Assembly: GCA_051294905.1 (NCBI GenBank)
Contig: CM119373.1
Location: forward strand, 7,998,001 to 8,062,000
Source: Botryllus schlosseri
Lineage: Eukaryota
Reading direction: 5' to 3'
DNA length: 64,000 nucleotides
The notes beneath the pieces were generated by a model. That model saw only the letters and a program-made list of their open reading frames with translations, searched no databases and had not been told where the DNA came from. The position numbers and the translations under genes are program-made. Of the stretch, positions 1,500-47,599 are shown piece by piece. Position 1 is the stretch's first letter; each line of letters begins with the position of its first letter.

Positions 1500-1955
1500 C
1501 ATCCCATCTCGATTACGGTTAACAATAGAACCACGCCAAGTTAATATTGCGTATATCCATTGCATACGTAACGACACTTGAATGGTGCTCCTGGACTGTA
1601 TTCCAAGCTCCTCTTTTCTTTCAGATGCGATCTGGACCGCGTTTGCGACGAGCACGCCACATTGGCCAACAGGCGGCTGAGGCCCGACCTCATCCTAGCG
1701 GATCGTTGGCGGGTCTTGGTCATCGATGGGGTGTGCCTCTTCGAGAATGGAGTAGCCAGCATGGACGCTGCCGTTGCGCTGAAACACGCAAAGTACAAGG
1801 ACCTCTGTGAGTCTCTCCGCCTTTTCGTAATTTCGCAGGTTACAAGGTGTCTCCATCACTCTCAGAATCAAGTATGCGTAGCGGTCGGCGGCCGCGAACA
1901 TTTGTATCCGAAGCGGTGTCACATCTTGGCACACGGGAACACTGTATTATAATTA
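1500..1955 (+). pseudogene. 3' fragment of an RLE-type (R2/NeSL/Utopia-like) non-LTR retrotransposon: restriction-like endonuclease domain
   Basis: ORF 1578..1952 contains LRPDLILADRWRVLVIDGVCLFENG...ALKHAKYKDL, i.e. the PD-x12-D catalytic pattern plus CPFENG-like and KxxKY motifs typical of NeSL-type RLE domains; no RT visible. Confidence 0.75.
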
Positions 1956-2123: not shown

Positions 2124-3720
2124 CTATGATAATAACCCAACGATACGTGACTGCATCAATATGACTGACCCGGCCGGTGGATGAAAAGCGGGATTTGAGG
2201 GCACATGCGTTGGTCTAGCGTCGTTCAACCACCCGTCGCTAATAACCCGCAGATTCTCCTCATCCATCATGTTATTGAGGCACTGCTGGTAGTCAGATAC
2301 AGTGCGAAACTGATCAGCACATAAGTCTTGTTCTAAATCCGGCATTTCTTCGCTGGCAAGTTTGTTAACGAGGCTGTCTAGTATGAGCTCGCACGTTGCG
2401 CTACAAATTGACCGCCTTCTGGTACGCGGGACGAATTCTGCAGCAAATTCCAAACTATAAAACGCCGTCCCACGCCTCGCGCTGTTCCCCGCACTCGACC
2501 AGTAGTGCGAAGGGTTCTACCAATTTTTTCTATCAAGTTGTAAAATTATACCATAACTGTAAATGCTTTCCACAATTACCAACCGGTTCGACCCGTGGGT
2601 TTTGGCCGACCATGACGCATGAAACATTTGCTTAACGGCCGCCATCATGCCAGAATGACCCCAAAATGACCGGCCTGCGTCATCGCTTTTCAACACACGA
2701 GAGTGCGCGCGAGCCCATGTGTAATTGACCCACACCCGAGGCGTCGTGTGGAAGTAGACTAGAAATACGCGGCGGAAATAAAATATCGCATAGTAAGGTT
2801 TTTCCCGCCTCGGGCGTACCCTTAAATATTATATGAGAAGCAAACGTTACGCCATTACCGCGAGCCTCGATGACAGCGCACAAGAGACATGCCATGGTCT
2901 GCGACCGATTTAGAGTTTGTCCCGTATACGTAGCGCACACAACCCGATGATCTATAATATCGTTAATCATCTGGACGCCCTCCGCCACCGTTGTAGTGGT
3001 CGCGCGAAGGCGAAGCCTCCACGCCAATGGAGCACGGTGGTGTCGAACGCCAAACAGTCTGCGGCCACTAGTGGAAGCTCCTGTTCACGAGAGGCTGACA
3101 CCGTGTAGCCTCTCTTGTCTGTGAGATGAAATTCCCATTCGCCAAACGGTGGCTTCTCTTCGAATTCGATGTAACCCTGGCTGACGGCATGGAGCTGTGT
3201 GGTCCAGGGTGAAGCGCGTCTGGCTCCGACGATACGCGCCATTCCAGATGGCATTTCTGCATCCGTTCGACTGAACCTGTCAACACGTGTATGCATCGCT
3301 GGTATTGAAACATAGTCTACTACATCGCAATAATGACTGACATTAGGTTGACGTGCGCTATAACGTCCTCGGTCGCTGTCACGTGGTTGTTCATCACATG
3401 AATGTTGGCGCGGACCAACATTGTCCGTACCTGCTTTGCCGTATAGACTTGACGAGCGCGGTCCAGCTACAACTTTATATTATATTGGTCTGGCATGACG
3501 TTAGAGTAGTTCAGTTCTTACCAGAGGCGGTAAGATTAACCCGAGATGTACGTCCATGTCGTAGAGTGGATGGAGTAGATGCCGCGAAAATCTTAGCACG
3601 TCCGTTATGGTCCCACACAGATACTTGAACTCACGCCGACTGGCTACGAAATGCCAATCATGCAGAAACCTTATCGTCAGTAGCAGATACATTCAATACG
3701 GCTGACAAGTTGTTCGCATA
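2124..3720 (-). pseudogene. SF3 (AAA+) helicase-encoding ORF of virus-like origin, copy 1 (frameshifted)
   Basis: Walker A GTPEAGKT (2797-2820), Walker B VLKSDD, B'-like KQMF..SAKT, and EPFALLVECGEQREAWD(R)RFIV arginine-finger region after frameshift; collinear with copy 2 at 31-32.5 kb; N-terminal limit approximate. Confidence 0.8.
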
Positions 3721-4529
3721 TTGTCGCATATAGAAAAACTCGTTTGCCATGGCTATCACAGCTAATCAGAATTATTAAAGAACGTATGAGAGAACGAGAT
3801 CTTATTATATGCGCCCTACACGTGTTGCAATTCTTTATTGAATCGCTCTAATTGCAAACCCGCTAAATGTTACCCACCACGAGTGTGAAGGTGCGGGCTA
3901 ATCATTGATCTTGCGGTATGGATGAAGCAATTGGTGTTGCCAACCGTAGTCTAATATATAGGAGCAATCTTGTGTCCCGTATTGCCTGGCTCTATCTAGT
4001 AAATAGCAAATAATCGTACGCATCTCAACACAATCATTAAATTCGCTTGTACGATGCATAATAAGTATGCGTAAAAGTTACGGGACATTATTGCTATGTA
4101 TATGGAACACGGTTCCTGTAACGGTTATACGAAATGATATTGAAAATATGTCGGTCGATGTCCGTTCGATTAGCCAGCAACAAATTCTAGTCCGTATTTT
4201 GGTTTCGATACTATTTTGCGATGCGGGATGTTGTAAACCGGGTCGGTCGCATTGTAACATTCCAAACATGTAGGCCTAACATATTTCGGAATCGGGCATG
4301 GATGGCACATATACCAAATGAGAAAAGTTAGTTTAGCAAGACTGAGAACAGCCTATTTCGCTATTTCGGCTGTAAACTTTGAGGATACGACTAATAAAGA
4401 TACTCACTTTCGTTCAACTCCCGATTTACACACGTTATACTTAAAATTAGAGGTATTGACTGAGAAGATGAACAATAAAAATTTTGTCGTCACTTTCGTT
4501 CGGACATCCCCGTCTTCGTTCGTTACAGT

Positions 4530-7260: not shown

Positions 7261-7558
7261 TTGAAATGAGGCCAATATGTAAAGTATGCAACCGTTTTTT
7301 TGCAATTGTATGGTGCTATAGAGTGAAATATAGAGAGTTTTGATCGTAGTTAATTATATTCACGATGGCATCCATGTGATTTTATGGTAGTGAGTCTTCC
7401 GAGTCGAGGTAAAATTGCCTTGCCAGATAAACGTGCTACCGCTGAGATTCGTTTACAGTCTTTCGCGCCGAAGGCCGTGGGATCCACGTCAACTCCAATA
7501 ATATTCTTCTCTTTGATAATATCGAGAGAAGAAGCGCATCGGAGTCGAACCAAGCATC

Positions 7559-8655
7559 TTGTCGTGCTACCTTGCTCATACCCACTCCCACCAGACGAAG
7601 GCTACTCTGCCAACTACGAATACAATGCGTGCCGCAAGAAAACACATTACAGCAGCTATACCGGCCATCCACAAATACGGGCCGAGAAGCACTTCTTCAG
7701 CCCACCCCTATAAACGTTGGTCTTGGGACCCCTACAGGGCGATAAGCCAAACTTCCGGGGTATTTATCATCAGCCTAATTGAAGGCTACATGCATAAAAA
7801 GTATTTTTCCCCGCACTTTTTCATAGAAGGTAAAAATCACACAGGGAAAGAGGTATTGATTGATTTGTTGCTATCCGATGAAATAGCTAATTTCATAGAA
7901 CCTTTTCATTCGAATTTAGAGGCGTTCAAATACCATGATGCTTCGAAATCCATTTGCGATTCGTAATTGTGGGAATCTGTTTTCATGAACAAGATGTTGC
8001 AGGAGGCGATTATGTACGTTCATCGCAGTCCATTGCAGTGTAATTACGGACGCGTAAATCCGTCTTCGTTTTGGCTCGTATCCGAAATTCAGAATGGAAG
8101 CGATGTCATGCTTAATAGCCTCGATCGGATGTTTCAATTCAGTAGCGTGATTATCCGTTTCGGTAATCAGTCTTATGCCTCGTATTTGCCTGAGATGAGT
8201 AGGCATGCTCGCCGTAGAATTATTCATGATATTTTTTCTCGCACATTCATACCGTCAGATTCGGAATTCGATCATGATGCCTCTTATGTTGATGACGATG
8301 TGCATGCATGTGAATTGTATAGCAAATTCGATGAGATTAAGCTGGAGCACAATGATTGTTATTACAATTGAATTTGTTTTCTCAGATTATTATGGATCCC
8401 TTTAGTTGCGGTAAAGATTTAAATATGCTGTTGCAGCAAGAATACGGCGCAGGAGACGCGAGGCGTAGCCGAGATGCCACGACGGCCACCTTCGAAGGTT
8501 TGATCGATGAAGATATCAAGAAAGGTGCCACTTGGAGAAAAATGGTCTCACTGGAAGGATACGGGGAATGGCAGAAATATTTTCTTGTTATCGCAAAAAA
8601 TGTCCTTAGGTATTTGCCCCTGACTCGGAGGAATTGCGTAACTTACCAAGTGTAA
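7559..8655 (+). pseudogene. Orphan ORFs immediately upstream of the polymerase relic
   Basis: 7559..7966 and 7967..8371 are one frame broken by a single stop; 8356..8655 follows, then the pPolB frame; no family recognised. Confidence 0.4.
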
Positions 8656-8739
8656 ATTGCGTCTGAGATATGAAATATCTTTATGAATGTATCGTTTATG
8701 TATTTATGAATGTATCGTTAATGTATTTTCAGAATATAG

Positions 8740-9790
8740 TATAAGATATATTGCTCGCCGAAGACGCTACGAAGAAGATGCCACATTCATCGTCGACGAT
8801 TCGCTCGGTTTCGACAACGACGCGACGGGGGTTATTCAATCCTACTACGATGCGATTATCGATTCCCAGTGGGTAAACGCTAGACCCAACCCAAGGACTG
8901 CAAAAGAGGTGATCAATGTACGCGTTCTTGCTAGAGAAATGAATGATATCCATACACGTATCGCATCCATATACCCGAGGAGATTTCGACAATTCAAATT
9001 GAACTTCGCATTCGGCTTTTTGCTGTACAATCGTGAGACGGAAAGATGCAGCTATTTTCATCCGCAAGCAAGCCGCGCGGTTTTGGATATCCTAAAAACA
9101 ATTCTCTCACGTGAACACTTTGACCATTTCGTCAGCGCGCTCGATTTATCAGCTGCTTACGAGCTCGCGAGACAAGCGAGGCCCGATACCAAGTTTTATT
9201 GCGTTTGCATACTACATATTCAATTTTTCTTGTACGAGATGACACGTGTTTTACTGGGCTGCCCCACATTAACCTCGATATCCAGCGAGGCATTTAAATG
9301 TCGCCATATTAGGACGTTTATTCAAGATAAGGGCCGTTTACTGAACGATTCGCTATGCCTTTTCCGTTGCGTATCATTTTCCATAAAGAAAAAAGAAGAC
9401 GAGACATGTCTCACAATTGGCCTCTCAATTGCATGCGCGATACAATTTGCCTATTAATAACGGCGTGCCCTTTGACGAATTATCGAAAGTTGAGGAATGT
9501 TTTAACGTAAGGATACTTATTTATGAGAAGCATGATCATCAACCATCTCTGCTGCGGCAGTCCGAAGCAGGCGGGACAGCGGTTCTGATACACTTGGATA
9601 ATGGACACTTGTTTGATAACTAACATTGAAATTTATTCCGCCACGTTTTCTTGCGAATCGTGTAACTTTTTCTTTGCGAATAGGCGGAATTTGAACCGTC
9701 AACGTGCACGTCAATGCAAATTGGCCCAGTCTCGGAAATATGCGAGCGGTGTATATCGCACTAAACTCATCGTTTCAAACAATTGGAAAG
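8740..9790 (+). pseudogene. N-terminal portion of a Maverick/Polinton (adintovirus-like) protein-primed family-B DNA polymerase
   Basis: FKLNFAFGFLLYNRETERCSYFH, RPDTKF, LLG, DSLCLFRCV, GVPFDELSKVEECFNVRILIYE, FSCESCNFFFANRRNLNR..C..YASGVY occur in the order characteristic of the N-terminal region of animal Maverick pPolB; frameshifts at ~9420 and ~9610; exonuclease and polymerase motifs absent. Confidence 0.75.
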
Positions 9791-24074: not shown

Positions 24075-25475
24075 TTAACAGGTTTTGTCTGGCTATGAAA
24101 AGCAGTGGTGCATACGAACAGCTTTGTGATGCTGGTTTGCTACTGCTACCTAGTAGAAGGACTCTTTTTAACTACAGGTTCGTTTTCTACTCATGAAAAC
24201 TTGGGTTCGGGCCCCAAACCCGGATCCAATTTCATATCTCACTTTTGTTGTAATAGAAGTGTCCATAGCTCGTCACCCAGATTTCTGGACACCACTATAC
24301 AAGAGCTAAAGGAGAAATCAAGATCAATGGAGGAGCATGAACGTCCTTTTGTAATCAAGATCAATGGAGGATCATGAACGTCTTCTTGTACTATCAATGG
24401 ATGAGATAAAAGGTACTATAAGGTGAGTTAGATCAATCCATAATGGATATCTTTTGTTATCATTGCTTTGTAGCAGTGCACTGCACCAGACTTTACAGTT
24501 AATCTTTTTGCACTGCTATCCAATGTAATCTTCCACGTGCCTGATTACATCTGATTAATGTATTTTCAGTGAAAGAAAATATATTTTATTCCGCAAGCCT
24601 CAAGACATAGTGGTAGGATTCGTCGATCTTGGGAGTCAAGACCTGCAAAAGCGAAGCAGCTACACACGCTCTTCAACTTTATGTCAGGGGCCTTGTAACG
24701 TCATTTTCCAAGCCCTTTTGGCACACTACGCTACAAAGTCTGTGGCTTCATTTCAACTTTCCTGTATATTTTGGGAATGTGTCGGCATGTTGGAGGATTG
24801 TGGATTTCGAGTAGCTGCATTTGTTGCTGATGGACTAAGTGCGAATCGCAAGATGTTCCAAGAGCTCAATAACATGAATTTGGAGTATCCATACAAATGC
24901 AGAAATATATTCAACCCCGGAAATGAAACATTTCTGATTTTTGACCGTCCTGATTTATTGAAAACCGTACGCAACAACCGATACACCAGTCGCAGTGGTG
25001 GTACTAAACTTCTCGCCAAAGATGACAAAGTTATACGTTGGCGGCATTTTACAGCTGTTCCAAAACTGTTTAAAACAACATAATTAAGATTCTGCAAATT
25101 GACAGATGCACAATTGCATATTTACGTATGCAAAGCTTTGCGAAGATGGGTGGTATTTTTGCTGCTCAGCTTCTGTCTAATAGTGTTGCACGTATCATGA
25201 GAGCGCGGGGAGGTGACGAGATGGAAGCTTCAGCATGGTTTGCCGATATATTCAACAAATAGTTCGACCATATGAATACAACAACCAAGTTGAGCTATAA
25301 CAGCGACTTGCGGCCATATTCCAGAACAGACGATTCACGCTTGGACTGGCTGCAAAATGAGTTCTTACCCCAACTGCGAAATTGGAAAGATTCATGTGCT
25401 GGAGCTACTGCAACGGACAAAGCGAGAAATTTCTAGAGCTGGCAAACCTATGAGGGTCTCGAGATAACTAGCCTA
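24075..25475 (+). pseudogene. P-superfamily (THAP9-like) transposase relic with spliceosomal introns
   Basis: RFCLAMKSSGAYEQL..LLLPSRRTLFNY|intron, LLVLSMDEIK|intron 24413-24569|VKEN..VGFVDLG, FVADGLSANRKMF, FDRPDLLKTVRNN, WQTYEGLEIT. Confidence 0.9.
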
Positions 25476-30983: not shown

Positions 30984-32480
30984 TTACCACACCCTGTTTG
31001 AGGGTGACGTACGAACGGTGGACGGCACGATAGACGGTATTGGTTCGTCCAACCATCGATCGCTCATCATCCGCAGAATCTCTTCGTCCATGGTGTTTGT
31101 TAAACAATTGTAATATCCTTGTGCCGTTCGGAACTGATGCGTGAAGCATTCTTCTCCGCCGTCAGGAAGGCCTGTGTCGACGATATCGGCGACGAGCCGG
31201 CCGAGAATTCCCTCGCACGTTGCGCTCAGTATTGGGCGCTTGTTAGTGCGAAGAACAAGTCTATAACCAGAAATCGCCTGTCCCACGCTTCCCTCAGTTC
31301 ACCATTAGCAACGAGTATAGCGAACGGGTCCGGGTCGTTACTGGTGATAACCACGATGGTGGCGCCGTTGGACTGTTAAGCACCATCAGTTTTAGCAGAA
31401 CATGAGCCATGAAACATCTGCTTCAGTGACGCCGGCATACCGGCGTTGCCAAAACAATTCCTGTCAGCGTCGTCGCTTTTTGATATTCTGGAATGCGAAT
31501 TCATATGCAGCAGTCCCACACCGGGTGAGTCGTGTGGGATGGCACTAGATATCCGGGGTGGGAACAGCAAATTGCATGCAGTGTCTTCCCAGCTCCCGGC
31601 GTTCCTTTGAATAGTATGTGTGGCGCACACGACACGCTATTACCACGAGCCTCGATTACCGCACACAACAGGCAAGTCATCGTCTGGACCCTGTTCAAAG
31701 TGGTACCCTTGAAGGTTGCGCACATTACTCGATTGTTCAAAATGTCATGTACCATATGGACACCTTCATCCACAGCTGTGGTGCTCGCCCGCCGACGGTT
31801 ACGCCAAGATTGTAAGGCGCGGTGATATCTAACACCTACAGTCGGCGGCGATTGGTGGAAGCTTCTACAAACCAAATTAGATGATATGGTGAACCCCATC
31901 TTATCTGCCAGGTAAAACTCCCACTTCCCGAATGATGGTTTCTCCTCAAAGTCCAGATAGCCCCGGCTCACAGCCTGGAGTTGCACGGTCCTGGACGCGG
32001 CGCGCCTTACGCCTACAATACGAGCCAGTTTAGGCGGTAGATCGTCATTCGCTTGGTTCAACCTGTATATGTACGCCTATCGTGTGTAAAACATGAAATT
32101 GCAACTAGCTACGTGCTTAACTCACACGAGGTTAACGTGTGCCACTACGTCGGCAGTCGCCGCTGACTGATTACGAACGACATGTATGCCGACCCCTGCC
32201 AGCATCCCCCTTGCTTCGCCCGCCGTATACGACTTGCGACTGCACTGGAAACGCACTGATTGCAATCGTGTCTAATTTTCTCTACCCGTACAATTACAAA
32301 TTCGGTAGAGGATAATCGTCATACGATCGTGTAATTATACGTCATGTAGTATTACAACAAGTGTGGGCGATCGGTTTCACATACGAGTGTCCCATATCGA
32401 GCAATTCCGCCGGACCGGATCTCTTTTCGGTCGTCTACCACGTGGTAAAGCCACTGTCCACCAATGTACTCTATCGCGCA
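30984..32480 (-). pseudogene. SF3 helicase-encoding ORF of virus-like origin, copy 2 (frameshifted)
   Basis: Walker A GTPGAGKT (31582-31605), Walker B ISKSDD, motif C IVVITSN (~31337-31357), EAWDRRFLVIDL arginine finger (~31265-31290); N-terminal region aligns with copy 1 (ARIVG.RR..QL.AVS.GY..FEEKP.FG.WEF). Confidence 0.85.
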
Positions 32481-33674
32481 TGTATGAAGCCATATCACAC
32501 ATACTGTAGAACCGATGTAATACAGCCATTATGTCAACAGACACCACGTAAAGGCCCGTTATATTATGGTACAATAACTATAAACTTGTAGGGCATCGCA
32601 GCTAAAGGCTCATGTTGGTCATCGTGGTCGTTTGTGTCATTCCGTGTTTTTGTATACTAAAATGTCAGTTACACCAGGCCGCTATTTGTCCATGTTGAGT
32701 TGATGCATTCGCTGCCTACTTGAGCACGAACAACATATTGCCTGCTTACGACACCGCTTACACGGATCAGTGCACGATTATGAACCTACACTGTAAAAAA
32801 TATCCTTGGTATGTCTCAAGTTTAGGGTAGTTTCAGAATCCCCCTAGCTTGGACTCGTGAAATCAGTTTACTACTAATTCAACTAGGTGATTCTCAAGTT
32901 TCCTACCTGACTTGTGTTCCATAAACCAAGTCTGACAAAGGATTGACATATACCTTTCGCCTTGAACAATTGACACGAAATCAGTCGTCGGTAATCAATA
33001 GACAACAAAATCAGTCGTCGGTATGTGGATTCCAGCACAGTGTATATTACCAACAAAAATGCAACGCAACACACAAGACAATATTGGATATTGGATAACT
33101 GAAGTGACACAAATTCGTTATGATGTAATGAATACAGGTAAACCCACAATATATGTTCATTGTTCGACTTGATTACGTGATGGAGTAATAAGCCCTATCC
33201 TTCATATTCATCCAACGTTTTCGTAAACATTTTTGGCTCCTAATCGTCCCAAGGTCGCTGGAATTAAACTTTTCCGCGAGTCTCTCTCACTCTCTATCCT
33301 TCGCTTTGGTGGAATATTTTTTTATTTTCAATCACCGGATTTTCTGCTATTAAATCCAACAGCAACTTTTTTTATTGTAGAGAGAAATTTGGTTCCCTCT
33401 TTGCGGCAACACCATCCATTATTAAAATTATTGTTACATTATCGCTCGTAATTCTGTATTTGTTAGTTGATAGCAATTTAACCCGTTATAAATTGCTATG
33501 GCAGTACGGTAAATCGATACAATGGTCCTTATTAAAGAAATTGATTTCGAACCTGACCATTGCACATCACTACAGCACCTGTTCAAACCTGACCGTCAAA
33601 TTGCAGTTCACGCAGGTATCGCAGGTATCAACGCATGTATCACTCTTCCACGTTGTTCTGGTGCTCAGGTATCA

Positions 33675-35016: not shown

Positions 35017-37798
35017 TCATTTTTTCATGTGAAAATGATTGTTTAAATGAACGGAAAAAGTAACCCCTGAACAAATCAATTCTATGCAAAAAATATAAAC
35101 CTTGAAATAAAATAAATTGAAAATTGCTATTTTCTTCGTCTTTCTGCAGCTGCGGCCGGGTTTTGATCCGGCATTCTTATTAGGACCCGTGACGCGTAGC
35201 TTCCCATCAGATGAAACGTGCAAAGCGTTCACGGCCAATATTGGTTCCGCAAGAAACTTAGTAACTGCCTTTTGTTTCTCCTTTTCCGACTTATTGTCCC
35301 ATTCGTATAAATTCGTTTCGTATTTTAGATACTGATCCTTCAGTCGATACATGCCTTGATCGTAAAAAAGCTCTCTGAACGTCCAAATACATGGTCGTGA
35401 CCATTTTGTGCAGAAGATCAATCAATTTAGTTAATTTACATTTTTGCCATTGTGTCTGTACCTTGATCATAAAATTCGCAGTTTCACAATTATTATTTGT
35501 ATACAGTCCTTCGGAATTCGATTGTCGGTCCAATATTCTATTTGACGCCCAAACCTTGTCGCGAGCCTTGGTGAGGAGTGAATTGAGGTATGGAAGTGTC
35601 TGTGGGCAGTTTTCCCTGCAGTACTCCCTCAGTGCGTCTTCCGCTGACGACAAAGATGCAAGGCTGGATGATTTCATCAATTGGAATAAATTTTCTATTA
35701 TTGTTCTTCGAATTGTTTCATTTGCCCCGATCTTTATCAAATGATCAGCAACATTTTTTTTCATGGGGCTATAGCAGAGAATATGTGAAGCACCTGGCAA
35801 GCCATCCAATAAGCCATTATACATTGCCCGCTCGTCGTCGGTTCCAATTATTAAATTATCTGCAGCTGGAAACTCCTTTTGCAACTGGCTAGCAAATATA
35901 GAAAATGATGACCTGCACGATTTCGTATGTAGGAATATTGGGCCCAGGAATATAGGAGATTGGCCAGTGTCTCTTTTGATTATGCTCAGATTTTTAAACA
36001 CCATTACTGTTGCGTATATTTTCCCAAGATTATATGTTTTATCGACTGAGAGCGGAGTATCCCCAGTAAAACAGAATCGTTTGACATCCGCAATTTGTTC
36101 TGGTATAAACAGAGTAGCGCAGAACGGTTCGTCCTTGTCTATAGCACAAGATTGTACGTAGGGGTGATTGCTAATCATGCTGAATACTTGCTGATAGTCG
36201 TCCGATACCTTATTTCCTGTTCCGCTGACAACTTGGATTGGAAATTCTTTTGCCTTCTGTATTTTTTTCTGGTCTCGAATTTGCTGTTGATTAATTGGCT
36301 GTTTGGTTTTAAAATCTGGATCTGTCATTAGCATTGTGTACACTTTTTTTGGTGGAATAAATTTGGTCAATCTCTTTACTTCAGACAAAAGCTGTGGTGA
36401 GCTCTTCATATATATCCCGGCAGATGCAGCATTTCCATGAGGCGCGTGCCCAGGAAAGACACCCATGTATTCATACAATGCGATTTCCGATTCATGTCCG
36501 ATTAACCAAGTAATTCTCCTCTGATATGGGCGATTGACTTTGCTTTTACAATGGTAAACACCGATCTCGAATAGGATGTACTTTGTTGCATCATTGAATT
36601 CAGGTACCTCCGGCCAAATGTAAGTCTTCCCTCTCCTAATACGATCACATAACTTCCCGTCGCGTTTGAATACAATTTTTGAAAAGTCGCTGTCAATCCC
36701 TTTGATGTAATATGTGGTGGACCTATTATGCTCGCACCAAGCTCCGCAATCATCGATGAATGCATATTTAAGGTTGTTATCTTTCCTTTTTCTATTTGCA
36801 TCATTTCTCACGAGAAAATATATGTCTTGTTTTAGTCCTCGCGGGACTGCTTCTAGAGGTTTGTTGCTCCGTGACAGCTCATCAAAAACCTTTCGCAGTG
36901 GAAGAAATGAGCCATGCAGAAGTGGACTGCCGTATTCTATTTTCGTTTTTTCATTACAATTAATATCTGGATCTGATTCGTCTTGTGCTTCTAATTTTAT
37001 GTGCTTCTGCTTATTTTCTTGGTTATTTGAATCATGCAACAAACACTCAACGTCATGTGGATCATCATGTGCTGTTCTTTTCGCTTTTTTTTTGCAATGA
37101 CCATCTAGATTGATTTCTTTTGCTTGTAGTTTCTGCTGCTCTTTTTCCTGGACAAACAAGTTATCTGAATTAATTAAACTCTTGGCGTCATTTTCGCTTT
37201 CATTTATGTGCTTCTCTTCTTCCTCGTCGGTCGAATCATTTACATCTGGCAACAAATTTACTACGTCATCGTTACGACATTGCAATAAATTAAAATGGTT
37301 GATTTTCAAATGGTCCGAAAATGATAATGATATCCGGGATGTCCACATTATTTCGACACCGCAGTGTTTTGATGCTCGTACGTTCCTGCCAATCACTTTT
37401 CTTGTATAGGTTCTGCTCTGTAAATCGTAAATACCGTCACTTGGCATGTACGAGAAGATGGGAGCGTTTATGGCTGCGCTTGCAGCATACATATGTACAA
37501 GGCCGGAAAACTTCGCTATCCCGCTGGCTGAACGAAGAATTTCTCTGTAAGGTGGAGTCAAAATCTTATAGTCATTGAGGATATCGAGATGACTACCCCG
37601 TTCCCCAACATCGTACCACTTACTATTTTTCAGGATTTCCAAAGTTGTCGCCAGCCTCAGACGCAAGAGGAATTTCTCAGAGCCATATAAACCCAAAGAG
37701 CGTGCTCTGTAGAAACAGTTACCATCCGGGTTTGTCGACCGAGGTGAATAACGCAGCAGCACTCGTGGAGAAAGTGCTTTTAATATTGATACTGTTAC
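35017..37798 (-). pseudogene. OTU-like protease + MULE DDE transposase (3' part of a PHD-OTU-MULE ORF)
   Basis: OTU motifs TNPDGNCFYRA..LRL..LEIL.N..WY and INHFNLL; MULE motifs LSVDKTYNL, IGTDDERAM, HILCYSP (CxxH with H to P), TNNNCETAN; +1 frameshift in a T-run at ~35365 joins the C-terminal frame 35017..35421. Confidence 0.92.
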
Positions 37799-37887
37799 TA
37801 TAGAGTATGACTGGAGTGACGACTCGATTGTTCTCCCATTGTTAGCCGGCAGAATGGTCACGGTCAGATGGCTGCACCCAAAACAGT

Positions 37888-39073
37888 CAGTGTTGCCAAT
37901 TTAGCGATTTTCGCGCTAGATCTAGCGATTTTTCATCTGGTTTAGCGCCAAAAATATGGATCTAGCGCCTAGCGACAAATCCAGCGATTTTTGAAGAAGT
38001 ATTTAGCGATTATTTAGCGCTTTTTTACCGTAAATAACTAATAAAGATCAGTTCTGGCCGACGACTGCATTGGCTACACCGGCCACCAGAGTGCGGACTC
38101 CGATGATATATAATATTGCATGGTGTTCTAAGAACACTATGATTATAGATTACTAACCAACGTATAGATACGCAACTCCAAGCGGTAACGCATGGGCAAA
38201 CAGTGTTTATTCTTGCTGAGTAATCTAAAAGTAACATAATTGGAAGTGCTACATCTGGCGACTTGGGCGCTGAAATGTAAAATAATTGACATTGATCGAA
38301 AGCTAGTGTCGCAGTGATTTCGGAAATGCAAAATAAAATCGCGTCAGGACAATGCATGCGCCTCGAACCGGCATTGCTCCAACAATGGCACCGTCGCAAC
38401 GCGAAGAACATAACAATGACCAATTTCGTCCAGTGATTGCTCGGATCAATGCCAATTTCAGACTTCGGGGGCTGTTTTGAGGTCGTTCCGTTGTCTTGAA
38501 AAAAATTTAATTCGTATTGTCGGAATCAATGTGACACTAGCTTTCGTTTGAGACCAAATTCATTAAATTTCATAGCCCGGGTTGGTCCTCGGTCTCCACT
38601 TATAGTGGCTGGCATACCCGGTTCAAGTCGTGTTGTGTCGGGTCAAGTTGTATGTCGTGTACAAGTGTTTCCAGTGACATGTGTTCAAGTACTCACACAC
38701 AGTTTTGTGAAGTCAAGCGCATTTCCACGCTACATCGCATCACGTATTCACGGACGCATCGAGCAAGGCAGGCTTATGTAGTGAGCGGTTATGCCTGCAA
38801 ACCTGGTCAGCGGTCACGTATAGCGATCATTGCGCAAAGCGATCTGCTTTATCGAAATGCACTGCACGTTTTGTCCCGCTGTGACTTTTGGTCCCAGACG
38901 AGTAAAATATAACTGAGAAGAATGTATTGATATTATGGTTCAATTTAACACCTTTGGCAATTACTGCAGATTTGTCGCTATTTTTTAGCGCCTTTTTCTC
39001 AATATTTAGCGATATCTAGCGATTTTTGAAACCAGTTTTAGCGATTTTCTTCCATCCGGAGTTGGCAACACTG
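37888..39073. mobile_element. hAT MITE with (TAGCGA)n arrays inserted in the left TIR of the P element
   Basis: TIRs CAGTGTTGCCAA/TTGGCAACACTG; the empty site is preserved in the right TIR (43981-43995); TSD AACAGGAT on the right, AACAG--T on the left. Confidence 0.92.
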
Positions 39074-45367: not shown

Positions 45368-47380
45368 ATGGCCACCGGAAATTTGGTCGAAGTCGTGTCT
45401 ATCTATGGCAGTGGTCGGGAACCTTTTTCGTCCGAAGAGCCATATTGGCCCAATTTTTTTCCATTTCAACTCCCAAAGAGCCATACACGTCTTTCAACTG
45501 TTACTTCACAATTGAAAATTTGTGACGTCATGGTAGCACATGGGATTCGTCGTGTGCGCCTCATTTTCTCTGTAAAAAATTCGTACTTATCATGCTGGTA
45601 ACCGTATTCAAGCATGCGAAATTTGAGTTAAGAGAACGTAGCTTATTGCGACAACCCATGATCACATCCGTAAATGGAGCCAAACATGATCACTACAGCC
45701 GTATATACCCAATGTAAGTTGTGATACATCAGTGACATGGGGTCGGGGGAGGCAAGCGAGGCAGTTCGTCACCTGTCGCTACGATGAGTGAACGAAAATT
45801 GTGAAAATTTCAATGACTATTGGTATTTTCTATCGATGTTAATGAATGACTGAATTTTGAACATTTTCCTCTTAAAATTAGGCGACTTGCATATTTATTA
45901 TTCGAAAATACAGCCCGATGCGATAGGTAAGGCACAGACGGGCGAAACGTCGACATTGATACCGCAATTCATCGTAAATAGCTTAGAATTCATAATAACT
46001 GATGTGAACTGAATGTAACTGTTGCACTGATTCCGAAAATCTAAATACTGATCGACTTCTCAATTCTGAAAGTATTTGGCGAGAACATAACGTTGCGCTA
46101 TACATGCCTATATTTTATCGCTGGTGTCACAAAGTGACATACCAATCAAGAACGTCGATAGCTATGGCGTTGTTTGTAATTGCGAATGTCACTTCCACGG
46201 CAGTTCATTTCGCGCCATAAATCAGGAAAACGGAGCGTATGTATATTTGATAACTACGTTGTCATTTATGGGCATCACCATGTCTGCTATTCTCTTTGAT
46301 CAATCAACGTATCGTGCAATCCAAGATTTCAAGTCGGGTACATCGAATTCGCACGTGATATTCGTCGCCGGCGCGACAGTAACTTCAATTTGGGGATTTT
46401 GAAAAGGGCTGTCCGAGCCCCTAACCCTGAAGACGACATTGTCTTTACCTTTCAAAGACATGTTCATACGCCCACGAGAATGATTATTGTGGTCGTGATG
46501 AAATTTTACTAACAAGTTGCTGCAATATTGATCAATTCAGTAACAAAAAAAATTTATTTGGCAAAGAGCCATATCTTATACCCAAAAGAGCCATATATGG
46601 CTCGCGAGCCATAGGTTCCCGACCGCTGATCTATGGCATGATGAAATATTCCGATGAGGCAAAAAATGCTTTCTGCAAGGGCTAATTAAAGTATAAGTCA
46701 GGATTTGTACTTCAAGTTACAATGCGTGGCCATACAGTCCATGGAATTGTCAGGGCGTCAATGAAGGATAGGAGTTACAATGCTGAGGTTCTTGTTGACG
46801 GCTGTGGGAATATTTTAGATGCAAAATGTGCCTGTCCGAATGGGACGGAGTTTTGCAGTCATATGGTAGCAACAGCCATATACGCAAACCGTTAAAGGAT
46901 TTTCAAGGACTAATTTACCTAATTCCTGGATTTCAGAGCCCAAATCATCATTTTCTGAAATGAAACCAATTTCCCAGATATTTCCAGATATCAAACCTTT
47001 CCAAGCGATCTCACAGCCAGTTAATTCAACCGACAAAATGTATCTGTTTGAGCGTCTGAAAGCTGCATCCAGTGATTGTCCAATGACATGGATTGTTGGG
47101 CCAGAACAGGAACCATCTCATGATAGTGGTTTCAAACCACCACACATGGAAGACTTGATTCCAATCTACATGAACGATACCAGAGAGTTTTTGGAAAAAT
47201 GTAAAGTTAATGTCGGGCAAATAAAATGGTTGGAAACTGTGACTGCAGCACAACGAGAGTGTCCAATTTGGGGCAAGTTCAGGTCACTACGGTTAACGAG
47301 CAGTAATTTCGGAAGGGTGATACACAGTTATGACCGGCATTATTTAGATATGGTTTCATTCCAGCATTGCACTGCACAAT
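45368..47380 (+). pseudogene. SWIM zinc finger + YqaJ/lambda-exonuclease ORF (ISL2EU-type second protein), split by a MITE
   Basis: After MITE removal: MATGNLVEVVSIYGMMKY..KG*LKYKSG..VRASMKDRSY..AKCACPNGTEFCSHMVA (SWIM CxC-x6-CxH), then TAAQRECPIWGKFRSLRLTSSNFGRV (YqaJ N-terminal motif); truncated before the catalytic motifs. Confidence 0.8.
45409..46628. mobile_element. hAT MITE with GAGCCA repeats (1220 bp)
   Basis: TIRs CAGTGGTCGGGAACC/GGTTCCCGACCGCTG; perfect 8-bp TSD ATCTATGG (45401-45408, 46629-46636). Confidence 0.95.
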
Positions 47381-47599
47381 GAAACAAGACTGCTGCTAGT
47401 AAAAATAAAGAATCATCGGCACAGTGATAAATTATGTGCTTCAAGAACAAATATGAGCATGCGACATACTTAGTTTGAGTAACTTGAGCATATGACTTTA
47501 CAACGTAAAACACTTCTGAAATGGACCCGTAAATATAGACCCTGTGTACTGCAAAATTCCATCCATATGCTGAAGTGTCACGCTTTAAAGTCGCATGCT

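Follow-up and report, generated by a model that had tools for sequence, protein, structure and literature searches.

Relics of a nuclease-dead HUH-SF3 Rep-family gene in Botryllus schlosseri and their probable link to large YR mobile elements

Two helicase-like sequences lie in the window, the whole 64,000-nucleotide stretch of the Botryllus schlosseri genome analyzed here (C3:7998001-8062000, where C3 is contig CM119373.1; genome of 495 Mb with TTAGGG telomeres). Both are dead and broken. The gene from which they derive contained introns and encoded a protein of the HUH-SF3 Rep family in which the His and Tyr needed for nicking are missing. They belong to a subfamily, here called clade B, whose helicase is probably an integral gene of large mobile elements with a tyrosine-recombinase-like gene (YR) and a probable origin-binding helicase of the E1/large T type. 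The best reading of the data is that a captured viral Rep was turned into an E1/large-T-like helicase within a giant Crypton-like element.

Two broken gene copies in the window

The initial annotation described two homologous helicase copies on the minus strand. This is borne out by tblastx, which aligned them in seven collinear segments at 46-71% amino acid identity (3457-2178 versus 32241-31002), and by blastn, which gave 66% identity across 650 nt. The two copies are built as follows.

3522..3750 (-): copy 1 exon 1, start MANE; first half of the nuclease-dead HUH-like domain, by homology to the HUH profile; stops and a frame break
3467..3521 (-): copy 1 intron 1, predicted from conservation; GT..AG, 55 nt
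3342..3466 (-): copy 1 exon 2; helix and motif III region, Leu in the catalytic Tyr column
3277..3341 (-): copy 1 intron 2, predicted; GT..AG, 65 nt, phase 2
2178..3276 (-): copy 1 exon 3; oligomerization domain and SF3 helicase, Walker A 2820-2797, Walker B 2690-2679; several frame changes
32248..32789 (-): non-coding DNA upstream of copy 2; 86% identity to the region upstream of the gene in the 32-kb element
32126..32244 (-): copy 2 exon 2 remnant; exon 1 and intron 1 deleted
32063..32125 (-): copy 2 intron 2, predicted; GT..AG, 63 nt
30990..32062 (-): copy 2 exon 3; oligomerization domain and SF3 helicase, two frame breaks and a stop
31605-31582, 31480-31469, 31351-31337, 31288-31271 (-): copy 2 exon 3 motifs, namely Walker A, Walker B, motif C, and arginine finger, respectively

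Copy 1 starts at 3750, and the earlier limit of 3720 was too short. A length of about 500 codons, previously given for both copies, does not fit copy 2, which holds ~400 codons because exon 1 has been lost (~385 nt are absent relative to the C1 copy). The frames had been called frameshifted; some of the frame changes are introns, and others are true lesions. Among the reported motifs, GTP[E/G]AGKT, KSDD, ARIVG, FEEKP, and CAVIEARGN were recovered in both copies, while VITSN and AWDRRF are in frame in copy 2 only. Neither copy showed a capsid, TIR, or TSD, as had been reported. The window also contains no YR, no element end, and no gene X (described below), the nearest remnant of which lies 45 kb from copy 2. 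A Pfam scan of four window fragments of the helicase gene passed no family.

Copy 1 and copy 2 represent separate lineages, which are 87% and 69% identical, respectively, to the copy on C1. Copy 1 sits within a block that is 99.6% identical to C3:6.835-6.843 Mb. Copy 2 shows 96% identity to two loci, and its break after Walker A is shared with one of them. Several clade B copies, as these alignments indicate, arose through segmental duplication after the gene had died. The window copies are best explained as having lost their flanks in a region rich in dead mobile DNA.

Other mobile sequences are present in the window. A decayed Maverick piece, comprising a helicase-like ORF and the start of polB, occupies 7520-9774. 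Young Mavericks elsewhere in the genome (94-99% identical) carry an ORF of 530-544 aa before polB, which has a degenerate Walker A and is distant kin of the Rep family. The fragment at 1572-1952 (+) recurs at three other loci (75-92%), where it lies downstream of the helicase gene, and has no Pfam match; by eye, we take it to resemble the restriction-like endonuclease of a non-LTR retroelement. An 869-aa open frame at 35291-37900 (-) weakly matches a MULE transposase (E 0.009). A P-element-like transposase fragment lies at 24559-25083 (+) (E 8e-11), and a weak alkaline exonuclease-like fragment at 46870-47382 (+) (E 0.04).

An HUH fold without its catalytic residues

The conserved N-terminal domain, which initially matched nothing recognizable, is the Rep oligomerization domain, and it is preceded by a nuclease-dead HUH domain. 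Two further conserved coding pieces upstream of it constitute exons 1 and 2. When these exons from clade B (9 rows) were compared with the HUH profile of the family by hhalign, they matched with a probability of 93% (E 3e-7, score 39.5). None of 200 column shuffles reached this score (maximum 17.4), and the reversed profile did not come near it either. Single exons gave weaker matches, with probabilities of 18% for exon 1 and 72% for exon 2. The degenerate exons escaped an HMM built from the active HUH domain (best -0.6 bits), whereas the profile-profile comparison detected them.

The catalytic columns are well conserved in the family, where, of 48 rows, 43 keep the second His (His87), 45 keep Tyr136, and 44 keep the Lys. 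Clade B has Gly at the His column in all six exon 1 rows that reach it, and Leu or Val at the Tyr column in all ten exon 2 rows. A His occurs two positions earlier in 3 of 6 clade B rows, where the first His stands in 27 of 48 family rows; a lone His at this position would not form an active site. The clade B protein is an HUH fold that lacks the catalytic His and Tyr, and its nickase is predicted to be dead. Compared with the HUH-SF3 Rep of the Floreoviria replication module, it retains the N-terminal HUH fold and is devoid of the catalytic pair. The absence of an HUH nuclease beside the copies had therefore been stated correctly as regards chemistry and wrongly as regards fold, which persists in degenerate form in exons 1-2. 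The SF3 motifs Walker A, Walker B, B', motif C, and the arginine finger follow in order, assigned in clade B by alignment, with the SF3 fold taken from a modelled family member. In a database family member outside clade B in the tree (P0015), His and Tyr are also absent at the aligned columns, which may represent a second loss.

Copy number, introns, and selection

A genome search with a fragment of copy 2 returned 34 matches, most of them in ~20 loci of clade B, mainly on C3. Most clade B copies are pseudogenes; long open frames are found at C1:13.16, C5:20.78, and C16:22.37 Mb. A diverged copy at C3:30.26-30.28 Mb is flanked by 6.5-kb inverted arms that are 92-95% identical.

Splice sites were compared across 17 loci. 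Donor 2 is GT in all 12 loci in which exon 2 was located, and donor 1 is GT in 7 of 8. Acceptors 1 and 2 are AG in 10 of 12 each, and copy 2 has an AG 6 nt further in at acceptor 1. Background frequencies are 0.058 for GT and 0.052 for AG, and the copies are kin, so these counts are non-independent events. The predicted introns are mostly 55-66 nt long and longer in the two most diverged copies. Two conserved GT-AG introns thus appear to split the clade B gene, and splicing is predicted.

Between clade B lineages, pN ranges from 0.14 to 0.37, compared with a saturated pS of ~0.8; therefore, the lineages diverged while the protein was under selection. Close copies show dN/dS of ~0.3-0.4. Introns, purifying selection, and the loss of the nicking residues would suit a family of host genes that was domesticated, for example as an antiviral dominant-negative Rep, and then multiplied through duplication. 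This explanation is very improbable. Most copies are pseudogenes, and the open copies lie within a young mobile unit. Four subsampled RNA runs yielded no read on the coding exons of the C1 gene (3-13% of each run was read; two runs had no read at all), a search of sequencing runs listed no RNA run holding the gene, and no close homologue was found among the 82 family representatives.

The Rep family and its active-type members

Word searches recovered only three database relatives, while a profile search recovered 82 representatives, 58 of them at E 1e-10. Among 23 relatives that were looked up, one is an uncharacterized protein of Styela clava, and none bears a virus name. No Pfam family passed the cut-off in 44 family proteins, including Parvo_NS1, Viral_Rep, and RNA_helicase, and neither Parvo_NS1 nor Viral_Rep matched any of the genome's own ORFs. 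Most of the family retains an active-looking HUH site. This is also the type of clade A, which consists of two more distant ORFs (C3:8.43 and C5:12.22 Mb) with an unspliced HUH-type domain followed by the oligomerization and SF3 domains.

The AlphaFold model of a clade A Rep (pLDDT 80.8) was matched by Foldseek to AAV2 Rep68 over ~450 columns, then to papillomavirus E1 and B19 NS1. Further fold matches, at 8-16% identity, include IHHNV NS1, other parvovirus NS1 proteins, CRESS Reps, and an adomavirus helicase. In the ESM Atlas, the top match of the active-type relative was NS1. The PDB sequence search returned AAA+ P-loop matches only. In a tree of 46 of 51 rows (five short rows were dropped, and no classified virus was included), the three clade B rows form one clade (100/100), which sits inside a poorly resolved part of the family.

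None of the searches matched a named NS1, CRESS Rep, or Maverick helicase over the full length. The helicase-like ORF of the genome's own Mavericks is only a distant relative, scoring 18 bits over 78 aa against the family profile and having a degenerate Walker A. A polB/integrase element with close homology, the mark of a Maverick/Polinton helicase, was not found either. IMG/VR scans with two family proteins gave no relative. A metagenome scan with P0002 gave one locus, a 130-nt tail on a phage-like contig, which was rejected as an assembly chimera. The literature searched contained nothing on this Rep family or element; the protein supplement of PMC11071296 could hold members. The original proposal of an undescribed SF3 family of viral origin is upheld, with many diverged lineages under purifying selection. 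Its further suggestion of repeated direct virus integrations is less favored because the copies are better explained as relics of recombinase-bearing elements and as segmental duplicates made after death.

A near-complete virus-like unit of 5.3 kb with a clade A Rep lies at C3:8.4274-8.4328 Mb and is hairpin-ended. Its left end is a 21-bp perfect hairpin, and each poly(A) signal is followed by a repeated stem-loop. The Rep gene, which has an overlapping ORF, is preceded on its 5' side by a capsid-like gene of basic, Gly-rich composition and the same orientation. The genome holds 17 matches to the capsid-like gene and 15 to the HUH region, clustered on C3 and C10. The capsid-like ORF has no homologue among 7994 scored candidates, and its predicted fold reaches a pLDDT of 26; the Gly-rich gene is an unproven candidate for a capsid gene. 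RNA reads on the unit in four runs numbered 53 and 87 (mostly partial), 8, and none.

The 32-kb element and its YR-like gene

On C1, the helicase copy has a YR-like ORF at a distance of 10 kb. The open copies on C1 and C5 are located inside a unit of ~32 kb that is 99.3-99.8% identical between the two chromosomal sites, whereas the MITE copies it interrupts are only ~75% alike. The unit carries the same 5-bp core at each end, with short imperfect inverted arms inside. There are 14 left-end matches in the genome, of which 11 were examined. All seven near-identical left ends lie at the same MITE site, one of them reversed, and all four diverged left ends follow TTAGGG-like tracts. The six right ends examined all complete the MITE. 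At C1:23.04 Mb, a diverged end is followed by gene X, a clade B gene (73% nucleotide identity), and YR (65%). At C3:1.16 Mb, conserved element DNA and a right-end-like piece directly follow the gene, with no YR within 30 kb.

In the putative YR, the R-HxxR-H-Y motifs were read by eye; no Pfam family passed, and only a weak match to Phage_int_SAM_1 was obtained (E 0.017). Gene X is spliced and under selection, with 14 genome matches and no Pfam match (segments L032:385-1144 and L101:6721-7703). Its first exon matches clade B exon 1 with 79% probability in hhalign, and the rest of gene X is unsupported as a Rep paralogue. A separate 17.7-kb tandem YR array on C30 was rejected as a helicase element because it is the rDNA repeat. 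The C30 rDNA spacer contains a ZnF-YR gene with long open frames at 11 positions ~17.7 kb apart, which also adjoins telomeres on other contigs.

In the tested conserved DNA of the 32-kb element, coding signal is limited to ZnF-YR, gene X, and the helicase, and none was detected in the conserved regions between YR and the ends. The scanned pieces matched no capsid, protease, or packaging ATPase. Both results argue against the element being an integrated unknown small dsDNA virus (adomavirus- or PLV-like) with capsid genes too spliced or diverged to be seen. Such a virus is rather improbable, even though a dead HUH joined to SF3 is the papilloma/polyoma-type replication module (PMC13595969, in its available text), YR and SF3 modules are known together in PLVs (available text of PMC11296320), and YR-bearing nimaviruses target telomere repeats (available text of PMC10871703).

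The helicase and YR identities over the four loci that hold both agree in rank (Spearman 0.99, 1 of 24 label permutations). This is the strongest result that four loci can give, and it lends modest support to a common history. A YR lies within 25 kb at only ~4 independent loci of ~20 (10-60 kb of DNA per locus), and order and orientation vary. Between the C1 and C3:8.88 loci, the YR block is 96-98% alike and the helicase 90%; therefore, the modules have been shuffled. YR and gene X occur without the helicase gene at C7:22.23 and C3:8.76 Mb, and four short members also have both ends without it, so the helicase is dispensable for mobility. The region C3:4.7-9.1 Mb gathers many kinds of viral and transposon debris, including clade A and Maverick sequences, and can fake linkage.

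These data bear on the possibility that the helicase is passive cargo, that is, that a lineage of spliced parvo-like virus (or its helper or satellite) integrated repeatedly and was swept up by YR elements without serving them. Most clade B copies have no nearby YR, the short members move without a helicase, and active-type relatives with capsid-like genes are endogenous in the same C3 region, all of which this account would accommodate. It is nevertheless unlikely, since no capsid-like match lies beside any nuclease-dead copy, a Rep lacking His and Tyr would be of no use to a virus that needs rolling-hairpin replication, and three YR lineages bear correspondingly diverged helicases. An integral helicase gene of the YR elements is the preferred reading.

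Proposed replication of the element and its significance

A more specific proposal is tentative and on balance doubtful. It holds that a target-specific YR element on the 30-kb scale took over a Rep from an unnamed family of linear ssDNA viruses, killed the nickase of this protein, added introns to its gene, and uses it as an E1/large-T-like initiator to replicate the excised circle; such an element would be a new class of self-copying integrative element in an animal. In the mechanism inferred for the integral helicase, the YR would excise the element as a circle, by analogy with the YR chemistry outlined in the available text of PMC3212892. The dead HUH fold would bind the origin and the SF3 ring would melt it, as in E1 and large T. 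Host polymerases would copy the circle or an excision intermediate, and the YR would reinsert the element at a TTAG[A/G]G-like core.

The active ancestors of Papovaviricetes are too distant for residue-by-residue comparison. Here, active-looking and dead forms ~30% identical occur in the same genome; therefore, the transition is directly testable. What emerges is an unnamed Rep family of 82 representatives that Pfam does not recognize, together with a spliced, nuclease-dead branch of this family, and in an animal a large YR element with target specificity. In the literature searched, large site-specific YR elements are described only in fungi, protist-type viruses, and nimaviruses. If the self-copying proposal is true, the element would have repeated, independently, the step from which papillomaviruses and polyomaviruses arose, and its host genome would still contain the active ancestor family. 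It would be categorically new if circle replication were shown.

Comparison with known systems

For Papovaviricetes, it has been described how an HUH-SF3 Rep with nicking activity became an origin-binding helicase with a dead nuclease (PMC13595969, in its available text). Clade B shares with papillomavirus E1, polyomavirus large T, and the adomavirus type an inactivated HUH combined with an intact SF3 domain (same source), and E1 is among the top fold matches of the clade A model. In contrast, identity in the fold alignments is 14-17%, and clade B resides in an integrated YR element in which no capsid was found. The loss of HUH activity in clade B looks independent of Papovaviricetes because its nearest kin are active-looking Reps at ~30% identity.

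Parvovirus NS1 and AAV Rep likewise combine HUH, oligomerization, and SF3 domains in one chain, and AAV2 Rep68 and IHHNV NS1 are the best Foldseek matches. The clade A unit also resembles parvoviruses in its hairpin end and Gly-rich capsid-like ORF, although this gene lies 5' of Rep. The family differs from them in the absence of a Pfam Parvo_NS1 match and in an identity of 8-17%, and clade B differs in lacking an active site. The jelly-roll capsid gene and hairpin termini that characterize Parvoviridae were not found at the nuclease-dead copies. Oomyviridae and CRESS viruses, compared by description, resemble the 5.3-kb unit in their linear ssDNA genome and CRESS-like Rep motifs (PMC12451638 and PMC13426907, in their available text), whereas no Viral_Rep or RNA_helicase Pfam family passed for the present Reps.

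PLVs carry a YR together with an SF3 helicase, but as primase-SF3 end modules of D5-like type (PMC11296320, available text). YR-bearing endogenous nimaviruses possess a ZnF-bearing YR and target telomere repeats or rDNA (PMC10871703, available text). These groups are marked by D5-like primase-helicases, or by capsids and extensive virus gene sets; nothing of this kind was found in the 32-kb element. Cryptons share with the element a YR-like gene with introns, a short direct repeat at both ends (5 bp in the present element), the lack of a long TIR, and a proposed circular intermediate (PMC3212892, available text). The element described here differs in its size of 32 kb, its target specificity, and its SF3 helicase; the main text of that source, as available, never uses the term helicase.
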